Source of the DNA: a virus | Lineage: Duplodnaviria > Caudoviricetes | Virus record (IMG/VR): IMGVR_UViG_3300032327_000953 | Span: 128,001-192,000 of that record | DNA: 64,000 nucleotides | Strand: one strand, 5' to 3' | Shown here: one piece after another, positions 30,614-49,820 of the stretch | How positions within the stretch are numbered: position 1 is the stretch's first letter | Layout: every line of letters starts with the position of its first letter | The notes under the pieces: generated by a model | What the model saw: only the letters and a program-made list of their open reading frames with translations | What the model was told of the DNA's origin: nothing | Database searches by the model: none | Made by a program: the position numbers and the translations under genes

Positions 30614-31147
30614 ATGAAAACGAATACGTCTGTTGATTGTTCATATTGCGGTAAAAAAGTACTCAAATTAGCTTCAGAAGTAAAAAGACGAAGAAAAGCA
30701 GGAAAAGATAAGTTCTATTGTAATAACAATTGTTCTGGTAAACATAAGGCTGTTTATGTTATGCCATATAAGGATAATTTCAAAAAAACAAAATATACCA
30801 GACAACCAGATAAGTTTGCTAATTTTAGATGGTATATAAAAAATGTCATCAAAAATTCTAAAAAACGTAATCAGGAATATGATATAGATTTAGAATATTT
30901 GAACCAATTATGGGAAAACCAACTTGAGGTCTGCCCATTTACTAAACAGAAATTAGAACTCAGAACTCACAGCTATAACAATAAGAAACATCCATATTCA
31001 GCTTCTTTGGATAGAATAGACAATACAAAAGGTTATGTAAAAGGGAATATAAGATTTGTTGCCTTAATATTTAATTATGCTAAGAATACATTCAACGATC
31101 AACAAGTTTTAGATTTTTGCAAAAATACGGTTTCAAATGTCTCGTAA
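30614..31147 (+). CDS. putative HNH-like (beta-beta-alpha-Me) endonuclease with N-terminal zinc finger
   Basis: CSYC...YCNNNC; CPFT...SASLDRIDNTKGYVKGNIRFV..IFNYAKN. Confidence 0.7.
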   Translation: MKTNTSVDCSYCGKKVLKLASEVKRRRKAGKDKFYCNNNCSGKHKAVYVMPYKDNFKKTKYTRQPDKFANFRWYIKNVIKNSKKRNQEYDIDLEYLNQLWENQLEVCPFTKQKLELRTHSYNNKKHPYSASLDRIDNTKGYVKGNIRFVALIFNYAKNTFNDQQVLDFCKNTVSNVS

Positions 31148-31481
31148 AATTTGTACTTACTGTGGAAAGCGTAAAAACCTAGCAAGTTTTCCCAAGCACA
31201 GTATGTATAAAGATAATCTTGATAGTAGATGTAGAAAATGTGTTAAGAAACACTCTAAAATTAGAGTTAAGCTACACAAAAAAGCCCCACCAAAACCAGA
31301 AGTTTGTGAATGTTGTAAAAAAGTTCCTTACAAATGGGCTTTAGATCATGATCATGATGACAATACTTTTAGGGGTTGGTTATGCGAACCTTGCAATACT
31401 GGTATAGGTAAATTAGGTGATGATTTTCAGAGCATTGTGAACGCTATGAATTATTTTCTTTCAAGACCAAATCGCAAATAG
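31137..31481 (+). CDS. endonuclease VII-family protein
   Basis: CECC...LDHDH....FRGWLCEPCNTGIGKLGD. Confidence 0.8.
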   Translation: MSRKICTYCGKRKNLASFPKHSMYKDNLDSRCRKCVKKHSKIRVKLHKKAPPKPEVCECCKKVPYKWALDHDHDDNTFRGWLCEPCNTGIGKLGDDFQSIVNAMNYFLSRPNRK

Positions 31482-31507: not shown

Positions 31508-32842
31508 ATGCTAAAATTTTGGAAAACACAGGAGAAATTGGAAATGTCATTTGAGCATCTGAGCGGTTTTGTTAGTGATCTGAAAGCAACTAGTAGTACG
31601 ATTGACAAAGTTGGAATTATTGAGGACTATACCTCTTCCAATAAGGCTGGAGCAGATTTTATCAAAAAGATTCTACTTTATACATACCATCCTCTTTGGC
31701 AGTATAATGTGACTAGTGACAATCTTAAAAAGAAGTCCTCTCTTAGAGGCAAATCACACAAGACTATTTTTGATTTGTTGGATTCTTTGAAGAATAGGGA
31801 AGTTACGGGGCATGATGCTATCGGAGCAGTTAATACTTTCATCGACAATAATGGACACGAAGAACTGATTCACTGCATAATTGATAAAGATTTGAAAACC
31901 CGTGCTGGAGATAAGCTTATCAATAAGGCTATTCCAGATCATATTCCCACATTTAGCGTTGCTCTTGCCGATAAATATGTTTCTAAAATTGTAGACTGGA
32001 AGGATGGATGGTATGTTAGCAGGAAGATCGACGGTGCTAGATGCGTTGCTATTGTTGACAGTAATAGCAATGCTACCTTTTATTCCCGCACGGGAAAAAA
32101 CTTTGATACTCTTGATATTGTTAGCGGTGGCATTAAAGCTTTGGGACTTACTAATGTAGTTCTTGATGGAGAGCTTTGTCTTGTTGATGAAGATGGTAAT
32201 GAGGATTTTCAAGGAGTAATGAAAGAACTTCGTAAGAAAGATCATACTATTCCTAATCCTTCATATAAAATCTTTGATATGATTACTCATGATGAGTTTT
32301 ATAGTCAGAAGGGAGAAAAGAATAGACCATTCGGTATTAGACTCAAGAATCTTACAGAGATTATGAAGAAGAACGAATGTCCATGCTTGACACTTTTGGA
32401 ACAGTCTTTGATTAAGGACGAAAACCATTTTCAAGAATTTGTTAAAGAATCTACTCAAAATGGCTGGGAGGGATTGATGCTTCGTGCCGACACTCCATAT
32501 AAAGGAAAACGATCCAAAGACCTACTAAAGTATAAATCATTTTTTGATGACGAATATGAAGTTCTCGACACTGAAATGGGGCCATTCCGCTATGTTAAGA
32601 ATGGTGCAGAATGTGAGGAGACTATGTTGAGTTGTGTTATGATTCAACATAAGGGTCATACTGTCAGGGTGGGTTCTGGTTTTAGTATTGATCAAAGACA
32701 GGAGTTTTATAAGAACCCTAAGAAAATTCTTGGTAAGATCATTTTGGTACAATATTTCGAGGAGACAGAGAATGAAAAAGGTGGTATCTCTTTGAGGTTT
32801 CCAACATTCAAATATCTATATGGAGATTCTAGAGATACATAA
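31508..32842 (+). CDS. ATP-dependent DNA ligase
   Basis: Motif I RKIDGAR, LDGELC, YKIFD, WEGLMLR, LLKYK, OB-fold VGSGFS and SLRFP. Confidence 0.95.
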   Translation: MLKFWKTQEKLEMSFEHLSGFVSDLKATSSTIDKVGIIEDYTSSNKAGADFIKKILLYTYHPLWQYNVTSDNLKKKSSLRGKSHKTIFDLLDSLKNREVTGHDAIGAVNTFIDNNGHEELIHCIIDKDLKTRAGDKLINKAIPDHIPTFSVALADKYVSKIVDWKDGWYVSRKIDGARCVAIVDSNSNATFYSRTGKNFDTLDIVSGGIKALGLTNVVLDGELCLVDEDGNEDFQGVMKELRKKDHTIPNPSYKIFDMITHDEFYSQKGEKNRPFGIRLKNLTEIMKKNECPCLTLLEQSLIKDENHFQEFVKESTQNGWEGLMLRADTPYKGKRSKDLLKYKSFFDDEYEVLDTEMGPFRYVKNGAECEETMLSCVMIQHKGHTVRVGSGFSIDQRQEFYKNPKKILGKIILVQYFEETENEKGGISLRFPTFKYLYGDSRDT

Positions 32843-45481: not shown

Positions 45482-46648
45482 GTGGAAAAAGGAAAACAAA
45501 TGTTTAGTGATACTTTGGCTTTTAATCCGTTCGATAAGACTCATAGTGCTATTGGAACAAGAGATCAAATTACTTTGCGAAATAAGTTTTTTGATTCTTT
45601 TGGTGGTCAGCAGATTTTTTGCTATAATGGTGATCCTCGTAAGAAGATCAGCAGCATGAATCATACGGATCATCTTACTACCGTTGCTATTGCCAACGAT
45701 AGTCAAGGTGCTGATGCTTATTTCTATGTTAATGGTGGACGTAAGCAATATGCTATTAGTAGAATTCGTGCTTGTTTTGTTGATATGGATGCTGGGCGAG
45801 ATGATCAGGGTCGTTATTTTAAGCCCAGTATCGTCATGCAAAAGAAAAAGGAATTCTTGAACCAGATCAATAACTTTCCTGTAAAGCCAAGCTGGGTTGT
45901 TGATACTCGTAATGGTTATCAGTGCTATTGGATTCTAAACCAAAACAATATAAATCCTCACAAGACTTATTGGAATGGTATTCAAAAGAAACTCGTAAAC
46001 CACTTTGGTGGTGATGCCCGAGCTATCAAAATCAATCAGATTTATAGAATCCCTTACACTTGGTGGAGGAAGGGTTGGGAAGGAAAGCAACCTTATTTTA
46101 CCAGTATTTTGTCGGGCTCAACTGGTGATTGGGTAAATATTGAACAGCTTAAAGAAGCTCTTGACGGCGTTTCTGCTGTGGTTAATATTGTTGCTAATAA
46201 AACTAGTGACGAATGGTTTAAGGAATATGCTAAAGCTTATAAGAAGTCTGATATTACTGGGGTTCCAGTATCAGTTAATGTTGCTGCAACTATTGCTGAT
46301 CAGATGAAATCTCTGAACCTTAAGAACAGCACTGTATTCTGTAATACATATACTAACAGCACAGATAATATCAAGCCTGTTTATGGTAGTGTTTTTCAAA
46401 AGGCTTATGGTGATCCTACTCCAGTATCTCCTGTGGTTGAGGATGATACAGATTCTCTTGGGACGCTTCCTGCTGACGCTGGAGGCGAGGATTTAGATCT
46501 TGACGGTTCACAGACCAAGCTTTTAAAGACGGTCGTGGAGTTCCTTAATCAAGTCTCAACGCCCCTCTACTTTAGCAACAATAGGTTCCTGTCTAATGCT
46601 GCTAAAGAACTAGCGTCTAAGATCAGTGACAAGTTTTGTATCGGTTGA
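45482..46648 (+). CDS. RepB-like (AEP-superfamily) primase domain protein
   Basis: CFVDMD, PSWVVDTRNGYQCYW, GDARA...QIYRIP motifs. Confidence 0.7.
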   Translation: MEKGKQMFSDTLAFNPFDKTHSAIGTRDQITLRNKFFDSFGGQQIFCYNGDPRKKISSMNHTDHLTTVAIANDSQGADAYFYVNGGRKQYAISRIRACFVDMDAGRDDQGRYFKPSIVMQKKKEFLNQINNFPVKPSWVVDTRNGYQCYWILNQNNINPHKTYWNGIQKKLVNHFGGDARAIKINQIYRIPYTWWRKGWEGKQPYFTSILSGSTGDWVNIEQLKEALDGVSAVVNIVANKTSDEWFKEYAKAYKKSDITGVPVSVNVAATIADQMKSLNLKNSTVFCNTYTNSTDNIKPVYGSVFQKAYGDPTPVSPVVEDDTDSLGTLPADAGGEDLDLDGSQTKLLKTVVEFLNQVSTPLYFSNNRFLSNAAKELASKISDKFCIG

Positions 46649-48065
46649 GGGTTCTGTGTCAGGGGTATTGGACATTCCATACCCTTTGACACAACCACAT
46701 AAGGAGAAAACAAATGGGCAGACATACTAATGAATTAACACAGATATTGCTTGATGACGAATCAGCGAAACAAGAATTTGTTGAACTGATGAAGAAATAC
46801 AATTGTTCTTTCGATGTTTATGAACACATTAAAAAGAATGGTTTTAGGGGTATCCGTTTCTATGCTGGATATCAAAGCATGTGTCATGTTATACGTCGAT
46901 TAGGATTTAAAGGAGCAAGAAGAGGAAGAAAACCAACAAGAGCAAATGTAATTGCCACCACTGGATCAAGATGGTCTAATATAGAAAATTGAGAATTTTA
47001 TGGGACAACAAGATGAAGACTATAACTATGACGATTATGACTATGAAGATAGTCAGGACAATTTAGAGAGTCATTATAAACATTACTTCAAATTTGATCC
47101 CGATGCGTGGGATGCTTGGGGTAAAATGTTATACGATGCTCTAAACGACATAGTTGAGTATCCGTCGAACGTATGGTATATTGGGCCTAGCTTCCCAAAG
47201 AAGTCGTTACCTGTGAATAGTTGGAATCCCAAAGCTGGTAAGGATAAAACCTTCCAGTATTTGGGGTCCAATTATCAGGGACAACCCATTTGGAAAAAGA
47301 AATATTTTGTTTGCGATCCAATCAATACTCTGTATAAGAAGCATGTGCAGAGTAATGCTGTTCATTTTATAAATCAACCTCACTACTACAAAGGACTGTT
47401 CGACATACTGAACTAAATATGATTCCAGCAATATTCTTGTTTGTAGCTATGGGAGCATCTTCATTAACAGAGACTCCTTTTTTAGCATATGAACTAGCTT
47501 CAAACATGGCTCAGTGTAAGAAATTCGATTGGACTAAAATGGAAGATGATGAGAATAATGTTCGCTACACAATAACATTTCAGCGTATGCCTTTTATTGC
47601 ACAGCTAAAGTTTGAAAGAACTATGGTAAATCAGTACAATACAAAGCAATTCAAAAAGGCAAATAACAATGGGCAAAAATAATGAATGGTTTATTATTGA
47701 TGATCTTGAAAGATTTGTTGAGTCTAGCAGAGTTTTGATATTTGATAGTTTTGGTAAAAATGATTCTACAAATATTGATGATTTGTCAATCATGATATCC
47801 GATCTTCCAATAGACGAAATAGAAGAACTAAATAAGGTCTTAACTCAAGAAGAATGTTTAGTTATAGCTAAGTCGTTTATGAGGTTAGAAAAGAATAAAA
47901 GAACTCAGGAAATCAGGCATATTATCAGTTCTAAAAAATATATGGAGATGCTTGAGTCTTTCAACAGTAGAATGGTCAGCAACTTGCTGCACCACTTGGT
48001 AAATAAGGGAGTATTGGACAGTGCTTATGATAGCGATTCTGATGACTTTATTTTTTGGGTGAAAG

Positions 48066-48638
48066 ATGAAGATGATAACAAACAAAAAGAAACTCCTGAA
48101 ACCGATTGAGCATGAGGTTCATCTAAAGTATAGATGCCCAGAATGTTCTATGGATCGCTGGATATCTCTAAGAGAATCTCAGACTGCTGGATTTATTATT
48201 GTGTGTGAATGTAATAATATTTTTAGCGTCAAAACTGTAGAAAAGATAGTCTTAAGATATAAGGATAGAAAAGTAAAAAGAGTGGTGGAAGAAAATAAGA
48301 ATGACTCCCCACTAGAGTTAGTCAAAGAAATTGTTGAAACAAAACTTGAAGAAGAAAAATTAGAACTACAGATTGAAGATAAAATACAAGTTATTGAAGA
48401 AATCAAAGAAGTAGAAGAGATAATAGAGAAACCAATTATTCCAGATCATATGCTACAAAATTCTTGTGATGTTCTGGTTAACTATGGATTTACTGTTACC
48501 GAAGCTAAAGACTTGATAAGACAAACATACGCTGATAATCCTGTAGATTCAGTTGGTATTATTATAACAAATTGTTTAAAAACCCTTAAAATTGGAGATA
48601 ATGAAGATGTCGCAATTAATGAGACCGACTCGCTTTGA
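48066..48638 (+). CDS. zinc-ribbon protein with C-terminal RuvA domain III-like region
   Basis: CPEC...CECN; acidic linker; DVLVNYGFTVTEAKDLI...SVGIIITNCLKTL; overlaps the ruvB start. Confidence 0.6.
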   Translation: MKMITNKKKLLKPIEHEVHLKYRCPECSMDRWISLRESQTAGFIIVCECNNIFSVKTVEKIVLRYKDRKVKRVVEENKNDSPLELVKEIVETKLEEEKLELQIEDKIQVIEEIKEVEEIIEKPIIPDHMLQNSCDVLVNYGFTVTEAKDLIRQTYADNPVDSVGIIITNCLKTLKIGDNEDVAINETDSL

Positions 48639-49500
48639 AGATGTCATTGGTCAGTCTGCCGTTGTGGATCGCTTACGCATCGTTGTAGCGGGTTATAAAA
48701 ACTGTGAGGCTGCGATGCCGCACACTTTATTAGACGGCCCTCCCGGCCTTGGCAAGACCACCATAGCGAGTGCTATATCGTCAGAGATCGGAGTGAACCT
48801 TTATACGATCAATGCGGCCAATGTTAGAAGCATAAAGAACCTTCTGCCGTATTTGATGGGTATTGAACCAAGGTCTGTTCTTTTTATTGATGAAATCCAC
48901 AGACTTCCTAAAATTGTAGAAGAATTTCTATATCCAGTTATGGAAGATTTTGTTCTGAGTATCGTTATTGAGAATAAGCCAGAAACTATTCAGCTACCAG
49001 TATTTACTATGGTAGGGGCTACAACTAGTGGTGGTAGTCTTAGCCAGCCATTCTATGATAGATTCACAATTAAAGAGCATCTATCTTTTTACTCACCAGA
49101 AGAGTTAGCTAAACTAGCAGGGTTGAACGCTAAAAAGCTCGGACTAACACTTTCTGAGGATGATCTATTGGAAGTGGCAAAAAGAAGCAAGGGAACTCCA
49201 AGGATTTTGAATTCAAGACTTCAATGGTATAAGAGCTTTGTTTCATACCATAACAAAACTGATGTTATTATTGATGATGTATTCAATAGTCAGGGAATTG
49301 ATGCAAGAGGGTTGGATGTTTATGATCGTCTATATTTGGATTTATTGTCCAAGAATAAGACAAATCCACTTGGTCTAAAGAGTATTTCTTCCTTGACAGG
49401 AATTGCTATGGAGACTATTGAGAATAGTATCGAGCCGTTCCTTATTCGTATGGGTTATGTTGTTCGTACTCAAAAGGGAAGAGTTATAGGAAAGATGTGA
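48601..49500 (+). CDS. ruvB: Holliday junction branch migration ATPase RuvB
   Basis: MRP..F..IGQ, GPPGLGKTT, LFIDEIHRL, YPVMEDF, GATT, GTPRI, EPFL...G...RT..GR. Confidence 0.95.
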   Translation: MKMSQLMRPTRFEDVIGQSAVVDRLRIVVAGYKNCEAAMPHTLLDGPPGLGKTTIASAISSEIGVNLYTINAANVRSIKNLLPYLMGIEPRSVLFIDEIHRLPKIVEEFLYPVMEDFVLSIVIENKPETIQLPVFTMVGATTSGGSLSQPFYDRFTIKEHLSFYSPEELAKLAGLNAKKLGLTLSEDDLLEVAKRSKGTPRILNSRLQWYKSFVSYHNKTDVIIDDVFNSQGIDARGLDVYDRLYLDLLSKNKTNPLGLKSISSLTGIAMETIENSIEPFLIRMGYVVRTQKGRVIGKM

Positions 49501-49820
49501 TGTTTAGTATCCTAGGCTTTGGTAGATTACGATATGCTATTAGATCTCCAAGATGGAGAACAGTTAGAAAAGAATTTATTAAGAATAATAATAGCTGTGC
49601 AGCATGTGGTTCTACCAAAGACCTAGAAGTACATCATGTTATACCAGTACATATTGATGAATCAAAAGAGCTTGATATGGATAATTTAATAACCTTGTGT
49701 TCAGAATCATGTCATATATTGTTTGGTCATTTGATGGACTTTAAAAGCCACAATCCTATGGTAAGGGAAGATTGTGCTTTAATGTCCAATAAAATAAAAA
49801 CTAGACCTTATTTGGAGTAG
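49497..49820 (+). CDS. HNH endonuclease
   Basis: W...R......CAACG...EVHHVIP...DNLITLC...CH. Confidence 0.85.
   Translation: MMFSILGFGRLRYAIRSPRWRTVRKEFIKNNNSCAACGSTKDLEVHHVIPVHIDESKELDMDNLITLCSESCHILFGHLMDFKSHNPMVREDCALMSNKIKTRPYLE

Follow-up and report, generated by a model that had tools for sequence, protein, structure and literature searches.

What does a phage RuvB motor work with when the gene in the ruvA position does not encode a complete RuvA? We addressed this question for a phage with a 238,135-bp genome (IMG/VR record IMGVR_UViG_3300032327_000953; direct terminal repeats, rated 100% complete) whose relatives in IMG/VR were recovered from metagenomes of fresh water and other environments. 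The window, i.e., the whole stretch of DNA that was analyzed, is 64,000 nucleotides long and comprises bases 128,001 to 192,000 of that record, with a GC content of ~33%. In the window, a gene encoding a 190-aa protein overlaps the start of ruvB. A first-pass annotation had proposed that this protein joins a zinc ribbon to domain III of RuvA, the module that recruits RuvB. We find that the phage has a RuvB motor and a stripped-down partner in which the RuvB-docking domain is all that remains of RuvA and is linked to a zinc ribbon. The arrangement is conserved over a large clade of jumbo phages that are uncultured and come from fresh water. Our preferred reading, to which we assign a probability of roughly 0.62, is that the 190-aa protein is produced along with the phage RuvB and substitutes for RuvA in a minimal form. 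We refer to this protein as mini-RuvA. The features at issue are given below, with coordinates in the window and residue numbers of mini-RuvA.

48066..48638, plus strand: mini-RuvA gene, encoding a zinc-ribbon/RuvA-domain-III protein of 190 aa (list of open reading frames [ORFs], family of 548 clusters, AlphaFold2 [AF2] model)
48093..48263, plus strand: N-terminal zinc-ribbon domain, residues 10 to 66 (invariant cysteines, AF2)
48282..48437, plus strand: disordered acidic Glu/Lys linker, residues 73 to 124 (predicted local distance difference test [pLDDT], charge)
48441..48590, plus strand: C-terminal three-helix domain, residues 126 to 175, RuvA domain III homologue (hhalign, PDB profile, Foldseek, VIA-align, Pfam)
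48592..49500, plus strand: ruvB, complete, 302-aa ORF (RuvB_N, AAA_lid_4, RuvB_C)
48949..49005, plus strand: presensor-1 β-hairpin of the phage RuvB (alignment with the bacterial hairpin)

The claim that ruvB is coupled to the zinc-ribbon gene was upheld, and ruvB is complete. The stop codon of the mini-RuvA gene (48636 to 48638) lies inside ruvB, and the overlap is 32 to 47 nt, depending on whether ruvB starts at a TTG (48592) or an ATG (48607). Because a GGAG (48594 to 48597) precedes the ATG by nine nt, we favor the latter; the sequence thus suggests that ATG 48607 is the likelier start and that the overlap is 32 nt. The mini-RuvA gene has an alternative start of its own, an ATG at 48072, that matches relatives opening with MIKNKKK.

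We compared the C-terminal domain of mini-RuvA with known proteins by profile and by structure. In an AF2 model built with the family alignment, helices 127 to 139, 144 to 157, and 163 to 175 form a three-helix bundle (pLDDT, >90), and the motif L137-x-x-Y140-G141-F142-T-x-x-E146-A147 ... L171 aligns to RuvA domain III. When the family profile was searched against 177,635 PDB sequences, the best match was 1ixs_A, a fragment of T. thermophilus RuvA that comprises domain III and was crystallized with RuvB (E value, 0.0026 with a 46-sequence profile and 3.1e-4 with 79 sequences), followed by 1ixr_A (E value, 0.0024) and then by RuvA of S. thermophilus and E. coli. Using hhalign with an alignment built from eight bacterial ruvA genes, we matched residues 126 to 174 to residues 156 to 202 of E. 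coli RuvA with a probability of 90.5 to 91.3% (E value, 1.4e-6 to 9.6e-7). Foldseek against the PDB, a check that the first-pass annotation had proposed, ranked RuvA domain III first (TMt, 0.76 for 1ixs_A and 0.82 for 7pbl_G). The RuvA matches had a root mean square deviation (rmsd) of 1.5 to 1.8 Å over 48 to 49 residues and a probability of 0.99, and about half of the top 50 rows were RuvA. VIA-align, which is independent of Foldseek and was run against 48,161 representative chains, placed RuvA domain III in five of its top six rows (Z scores, 7.0 for M. tuberculosis, 6.7 for S. thermophilus, 6.0 and 5.9 for T. thermophilus, and 5.2 for P. aeruginosa); the overall rmsd for the structure aligners was 1.5 to 1.9 Å. 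Among family members, RuvA_C (PF07499) was the commonest Pfam match (6 of 46 and 9 of 79 members; best E value, 3.2e-5). There are four viral sister clusters in the ESM Atlas, and PF07499 is found in half the members of one of them. Each of these lines is weak alone: the domain has ~48 residues, and a Z score below 8 can reflect a common arrangement of helices. Because the lines agree and the position of the gene fits, homology to domain III is the clear reading. We conclude, from profiles and the modeled fold, that the C-terminal domain is very likely a remote homologue of RuvA domain III, as had been claimed from its sequence pattern.

The same searches bear on a different explanation, in which the resemblance to RuvA domain III is convergent: the domain would be a generic UBA-like module, the function of the protein would have nothing to do with RuvB, and its gene would lie next to ruvB only as a matter of conserved gene order. 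Small helical domains give middling Z scores to many folds, the mini-RuvA of the window has no significant Pfam or PHROG match on its own, and one AFDB family member carries the automatic UniProt label “UBA domain-containing protein.” However, RuvA domain III, ahead of UBA, tops every independent search: UBA domains scored Z values of 4 to 4.8 in VIA-align, under RuvA domain III, and the UBA family (PF00627) matched 2 of 79 members weakly (E value, 0.13). Moreover, the positions conserved in the family are those through which RuvA contacts RuvB, and the gene sits exactly in the ruvA operon position. We regard convergence as very improbable. RuvA_C itself has a UBA-like fold, and the two assignments are not mutually exclusive.

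In bacteria, RuvA domain III binds a hydrophobic surface of RuvB at α3 and the presensor-1 hairpin; it tethers RuvB, promotes nucleotide exchange, and activates the ATPase, and the core of RuvA serves as the fulcrum (PMC9477746; bioRxiv 10.1101/2022.09.22.509074). The most conserved domain III positions of the phage family are L137 (96%), Y140 (91%), G141 (100%), F142 (93%), E146 (100%), and L171 (85%), which hhalign pairs with E. coli L167, L170, G171, Y172, E176, and L199, respectively. With the exception of E176, these E. coli residues are invariant in the eight-RuvA alignment. The hydrophobic RuvB-contact residues (E. coli L167, L170, Y172, and L199) are kept as L137, Y140, F142, and L171 in 85 to 96% of the family. 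A passage of PMC2628435 that cites Nishino 1998 reports that the L167A and L170A substitutions in E. coli RuvA abolished RuvB function in vivo and left junction binding unaffected. Judging by homology and predicted fold, mini-RuvA probably binds the phage RuvB.

The phage RuvB itself has the features of a complete motor. It matched RuvB_N (P-loop), AAA_lid_4 (lid), and RuvB_C (winged helix) with E values of 1.4e-45, 2.2e-8, and 1.1e-17, respectively. The corresponding scores of 155.4, 34.2, and 64.2 bits exceed the Pfam cut-offs (27, 27, and 24.7). In an alignment with RuvB of E. coli, Acinetobacter, Wolbachia, and Streptococcus, to which it is 36 to 39% identical, the Walker A and B motifs, sensors 1 and 2, the arginine finger, and the C-terminal RT..GR hairpin are invariant. 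The presensor-1 β-hairpin is kept and is five residues shorter than that of the bacterial proteins. We considered whether the hairpin is altered in related phages that lack mini-RuvA (see below) and rejected this idea, since phage RuvBs have the same hairpin whether or not a zinc-ribbon gene accompanies them. A subset of phage RuvBs (loci L010, L023, L051, L053, L063, L066, L067, L069, L074, and L080) has an acidic insert of 7 to 9 residues (e.g., KDDDDKEK) at the tip of the hairpin, the expected docking site of domain III; this insert is seen both with and without the zinc-ribbon gene. Separately, the GenBank “phage” records L083 (CAKLQF020000007.1), L084 (MN180249.1), and L086 to L090 carry ruvA-ruvB and encode a RuvB that is ~40% identical. 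In the two annotated records (L083 and L084), ruvA-ruvB is surrounded by housekeeping genes (dgt, RNase HII, mraY, and purF); L086 to L090 are without annotation. These records look like bacterial DNA rather than phage-encoded RuvB.

The first-pass annotation had noted that mini-RuvA lacks the OB-fold and helix-hairpin-helix (HhH) domains with which RuvA binds junctions, and had raised the possibility that a canonical ruvA elsewhere in the genome is the true partner of RuvB. We searched both mini-RuvA and a six-frame translation of the complete genome. Neither contained a match to RuvA_N (PF01330, OB) or HHH_5 (PF14520, HhH); the two models matched 10 control genomes and 14 of 14 control genomes, respectively. 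RuvA_C (PF07499) was likewise found in control genomes and gave no match in the six-frame search of the complete genome. A canonical ruvA elsewhere in the genome was therefore rejected, and the two junction-binding domains are indeed absent from mini-RuvA, whose AF2 model has the zinc ribbon where RuvA has its OB domain. We also searched the genome for RuvC and RusA resolvases and found none.

The zinc ribbon was recognized in the first-pass annotation from its CPEC...CECN motif, and this assignment stands. All four cysteines, C24 and C27 (CPEC) and C47 and C49 (CEC), are invariant in 79 diverse homologues and are the presumed zinc ligands. P13, Y22, position 31, W32, and V46 are at least 90% conserved in the same homologues; position 31 is His in most family members and Arg in this phage. 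AF2 with the family alignment predicts four short strands in residues 19 to 54 (pLDDT, >95). The domain has a charge of +5 (family median, +6; range, 0 to +9), and a Lys/Arg-rich tail follows it. The nearest shapes are weak matches to MJ0042-type Zn_ribbon_4/Zn_ribbon_5 proteins and the ZitP zinc finger. With MJ0042-type ribbons (ZitP, 2NB9; AgmX, 7ZOK), the phage domain shares a small N-terminal four-Cys ribbon and is similar in predicted shape (TM, ~0.5 to 0.64), with profile E values of 0.1 to 0.3 that are below significance (0.11 to 0.3 for 7zok_A); Zn_ribbon_5 matched one family member only, weakly (E value, 0.006). The phage ribbon differs in its second knuckle, which is C-x-C rather than C-x-x-C, and the MJ0042-type proteins have no link to RuvB or recombination. 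The first-pass annotation had supposed that the ribbon redirects RuvB to another DNA structure or partner, and it may do so. We tentatively favor DNA over any other single target of the ribbon, at somewhat less than even odds.

The long Glu/Lys linker that the first-pass annotation described is present in this phage, where residues 73 to 124 carry a net charge of −11 and are predicted to lack secondary structure (AF2 pLDDT, 50 to 60), but it is not a property of the family. Linkers in the family range from 4 to 52 aa (median, 15 aa) with a median charge of 0, and the longest and most acidic is that of this phage; a long acidic linker is special to it and its near relatives. In two of the zinc-ribbon-centered loci, L151 and L153, the family match is limited to the N-terminal zinc-ribbon part (60 to 67% identity over ~45 to 50 residues). 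The L151 sequence ends soon after the match. L153 has ~270 nt before RuvB, and domain III of the variant at this locus may have diverged or been lost.

To define the extent of the family, we used searches of increasing depth. A word-indexed search found 16 homologues of mini-RuvA. When 1.84 billion representatives were searched exhaustively with the family profile, ~548 clusters (50% identity) had E values of ≤1e-3, and for 115 of them the value was ≤1e-30. The 150 members listed are 118 to 184 aa long, and all but two match across both domains; the exceptions are one cut copy and one match that is split in two. A tblastn search with mini-RuvA against 50,697 GenBank phage records found nothing, and PHROGs contain no family for it. 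The clade appears to be wholly uncultured.

We next determined the gene order around family members, a check that had been suggested at the outset, and found very strong synteny. IMG/VR contains 261 relatives of the phage RuvB, of which we fetched 80 that are 69 to 80% identical; all RuvB-centered counts refer to these 80 loci. A zinc-ribbon homologue lies directly upstream of ruvB in 69 of them, with spacing from a 41-nt overlap to a 5-nt gap. These homologues are only 25 to 41% identical to the window protein, and the zinc-ribbon protein therefore evolves much faster than RuvB. In the reciprocal set of loci, reached from divergent zinc-ribbon proteins, RuvB was the next gene in all 50 informative cases, and in four look-ups of encoding contigs it was next in every contig that was long enough. 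Because the same arrangement recurs in 69 of 80 RuvB-centered and 50 of 50 zinc-ribbon-centered loci, the two-domain gene is not a product of chance.

The gene order also speaks to the suggestion, made in the first-pass annotation, that the protein hijacks host RuvB. In that case, domain III would dock on host RuvB hexamers and sequester them or divert them to phage DNA, apart from the phage RuvB. Recognition between domain III and RuvB crosses species, according to hetero-complementation that is cited in a passage of PMC9477746, and phage RuvB can occur without the zinc-ribbon gene. However, in the 50 informative loci the phage ruvB follows immediately and usually overlaps, the zinc-ribbon gene was never found alone, and the overlap suggests cotranslation with the phage motor. 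The strict linkage of the zinc-ribbon gene to the phage RuvB argues against hijacking as the main role, and we consider it improbable.

Several observations count against our reading of mini-RuvA as a RuvA substitute. At the level of homology, the window protein falls below the Pfam RuvA_C cut-off (24 bits), with PF07499 not listed at E values of ≤1; the structural Z scores of ≤7 are in the range where small helical domains match by common arrangement; and UBA-like three-helix domains have the LxxxGF/YxxxEA pattern too. At the level of function, RuvB binding is a prediction from homology and fold. DNA binding by the zinc ribbon is putative, and some proteins of the closest shapes (ZitP and MJ0042 type) are protein-binding modules. 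It is not obvious how a monomeric adaptor could keep a four-way junction open, a task that the tetramer performs in the case of RuvA, and Holliday junction branch migration by this pair is likewise putative. At the level of distribution, 11 of the 80 RuvB loci (L021, L022, L029, L061, L069, L070, and L074 to L078) lack mini-RuvA, and there a homologue of another gene, encoding a 146-aa protein, directly precedes RuvB. Three complete genomes (G001 to G003) keep RuvB and contain no family member anywhere (own-genome control, 5.7e-48), and the RuvB hairpin is unchanged in these genomes. The RuvB tree requires five presence/absence changes, at least three of which are forced by well-supported branches; there were thus at least three to five gains or losses of the adaptor, most simply losses.

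Because the adaptor is absent from related RuvB loci and the tree requires these five changes, the motor is independent of it. For the same reason, i.e., its absence from 11 of 80 related loci and its repeated loss, we conclude that mini-RuvA is a dispensable accessory, either an enhancer or a targeting device, and not a core requirement. Repeated loss also provides ready comparison genomes, which can serve as natural knockouts.

We then turned to the genes around the mini-RuvA-RuvB pair and to other recombination genes of the phage, which are as follows.

47669..48109, plus strand: gene encoding a 146-aa protein, function not assigned by homology; its 3′ end overlaps the start of the mini-RuvA gene
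49497..49820, plus strand: small HNH endonuclease gene, 107 aa (PF01844, E value of 2.1e-8; phrog_144, E value of 1.4e-14)
31137..31481, plus strand: Endonuclease_7-family gene (T4 endonuclease VII-like), 114 aa (49.9 bits, above the Pfam cut-off)
31508..32842, plus strand: DNA-ligase-like ORF right after the Endonuclease_7 gene (ATP-dependent DNA ligase KxDG motif, KIDGAR)
G000:C1:216768-217574, outside the window (locus L092): RecA-family (UvsX-like) recombinase (PF00154, E value of 6e-18, above the cut-off)

A homologue of the 146-aa gene is present in all 80 RuvB-centered and all 53 zinc-ribbon-centered loci. Hence, this gene, rather than the zinc-ribbon gene, is the invariant upstream neighbor of phage RuvB, and its product may be a constant partner of the motor. 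A sigma-70-like site (47612 to 47640) lies just 5′ of the gene, and no terminator-like sites were found between 46200 and 50200, both by consensus matching only. We considered whether the 146-aa protein is a hidden RuvA-like junction binder and rejected this possibility, since nothing RuvA-like was found. The family profile had no match in the PDB (best E value, 0.75), and Pfam gave only weak matches of winged-helix type (DsrD in 17 of 48 members and HTH_56 in 14 of 48). The AF2 model (pLDDT, 82) had no convincing fold by Foldseek (best E value, 0.1; rmsd, 12 Å) or VIA-align (best Z score, 5.4).

The constancy of this neighbor bears on a further explanation, in which mini-RuvA is a free-standing regulator of the phage RuvB rather than an adaptor to DNA: domain III would act in trans to promote nucleotide exchange and ATPase activity (or as a brake), and the zinc ribbon would bind another phage protein (the 146-aa neighbor, the recombinase, or the replisome) and couple the motor to it. 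By itself, domain III is reported to promote nucleotide exchange and to activate the ATPase (PMC9477746); the 146-aa gene is the neighbor in 133 of 133 loci, some of the closest ribbon shapes (ZitP and MJ0042 type) bind proteins, and the linker can be as short as 4 to 5 residues. On the other hand, a basic charge is a consistent feature of the ribbon and its tail and would suit contact with nucleic acid, and the 146-aa protein persists in genomes without the zinc-ribbon gene, so the two are not an obligate pair. We consider regulation in trans unlikely, though less so than hijacking of host RuvB.

The HNH gene overlaps the ruvB stop codon by 4 nt. In 40 of 80 loci, a homologue lies ≤4 kb downstream of RuvB at a variable distance. 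The HNH gene may belong to the module, or it may be a mobile element. The Endonuclease_7-family gene is, from its family assignment, a candidate for the phage's junction resolvase. Between a rIIB-like gene and the RuvB module, a 388-aa ORF (45482 to 46648, plus strand) has weak primase-like matches (RepB_primase, E value of 0.024; phrog_3123, E value of 8e-9; phrog_2478, “DNA polymerase/primase,” E value of 0.002). Because of these matches, the neighborhood suggests a replication and recombination block.

Taking mini-RuvA as a RuvA substitute, we propose the following mechanism. The domain III part would dock, via its L/Y/G/F face, on the presensor-1 β-hairpin/α3 surface of the phage RuvB hexamer. 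Like domain III in bacteria, the docked domain would recruit RuvB and promote both the exchange of nucleotides and the hydrolysis of ATP. The zinc ribbon and the Lys/Arg tail would serve as the anchor (“fulcrum”), replacing the tetrameric OB/HhH core; this anchor would most likely rest on DNA and less likely on a protein, such as the product of the 146-aa neighbor. The pair would then drive branch migration or fork remodeling in recombination-dependent replication, possibly with the RecA/UvsX-like recombinase and the endonuclease VII-family candidate resolvase as partners. We propose that the adaptor boosts or targets the motor without being essential, because related phages have repeatedly lost it yet keep RuvB.

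A more specific form of this proposal is a two-part RuvB motor without a Holliday junction clamp. Here, a monomeric adaptor would combine domain III activation with a small zinc-ribbon anchor on DNA or protein and would load the RuvB hexamer on D-loops, on stalled or reversed forks, or on plain duplex in recombination-dependent replication. We regard this as one possibility, with the odds well under even. If true, it would be a natural separation of the “activator” and “junction-holder” roles of RuvA.

We compared the phage module with described systems. According to a recent survey of jumbo phages, the RuvC resolvases of phages work uncoupled from any RuvB-like ATPase (PMC7824862), and a phage-encoded RuvB module is therefore unusual in itself. 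A literature search for a phage RuvB with a partner that has only RuvA domain III found no description, and this stripped-down variant of RuvAB is apparently undescribed. The closest phage case is by description only: a protein of Kirov phage reportedly contains domain III but is not a complete RuvA. No RuvB has been reported from Kirov phage, whereas the protein studied here comes with a RuvB of the phage; no function has been described for either. In Mycoplasma (PMC3364216), the coupling of RuvA and RuvB is likewise loosened, and some RuvBs are RuvA-independent helicases. However, Mycoplasma RuvA retains all three domains, whereas the phage protein has lost the junction-binding domains.

The phage module most closely resembles bacterial RuvA-RuvB (E. 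coli; T. thermophilus, 1IXR/1IXS; S. thermophilus, 7PBL; PMC9477746). In both, the partner gene lies directly upstream of ruvB and is coupled to it; a tethered three-helix domain III has L-x-x-(L/Y)-G-(Y/F) and E-A motifs; and RuvB is complete with its presensor-1 hairpin. In contrast to bacterial RuvA, the phage protein lacks domains I (OB) and II (two HhH), which tetramerize and hold the Holliday junction, and has in their place a basic four-Cys zinc ribbon of ~60 residues. The phage system also differs in its highly variable linker length, in its shorter RuvB hairpin, in encoding no RuvC, and in having a partner that is dispensable in related phages. RuvAB is the textbook branch-migration machine, and cryo-electron microscopy has assigned RuvA two separable jobs, as junction fulcrum and, through domain III, as activator. 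The phage family is a natural experiment that retains only the activation job, on a different and very small anchor. With ~130 to 190 aa plus ~300 aa, it is a minimal system in which to study the way that domain III drives the AAA+ cycle, and it can be used to test how a RuvB motor behaves when there is no junction clamp. It also gives a view of how an abundant clade of jumbo phages from fresh water, all of them uncultured, recombines and replicates its DNA.

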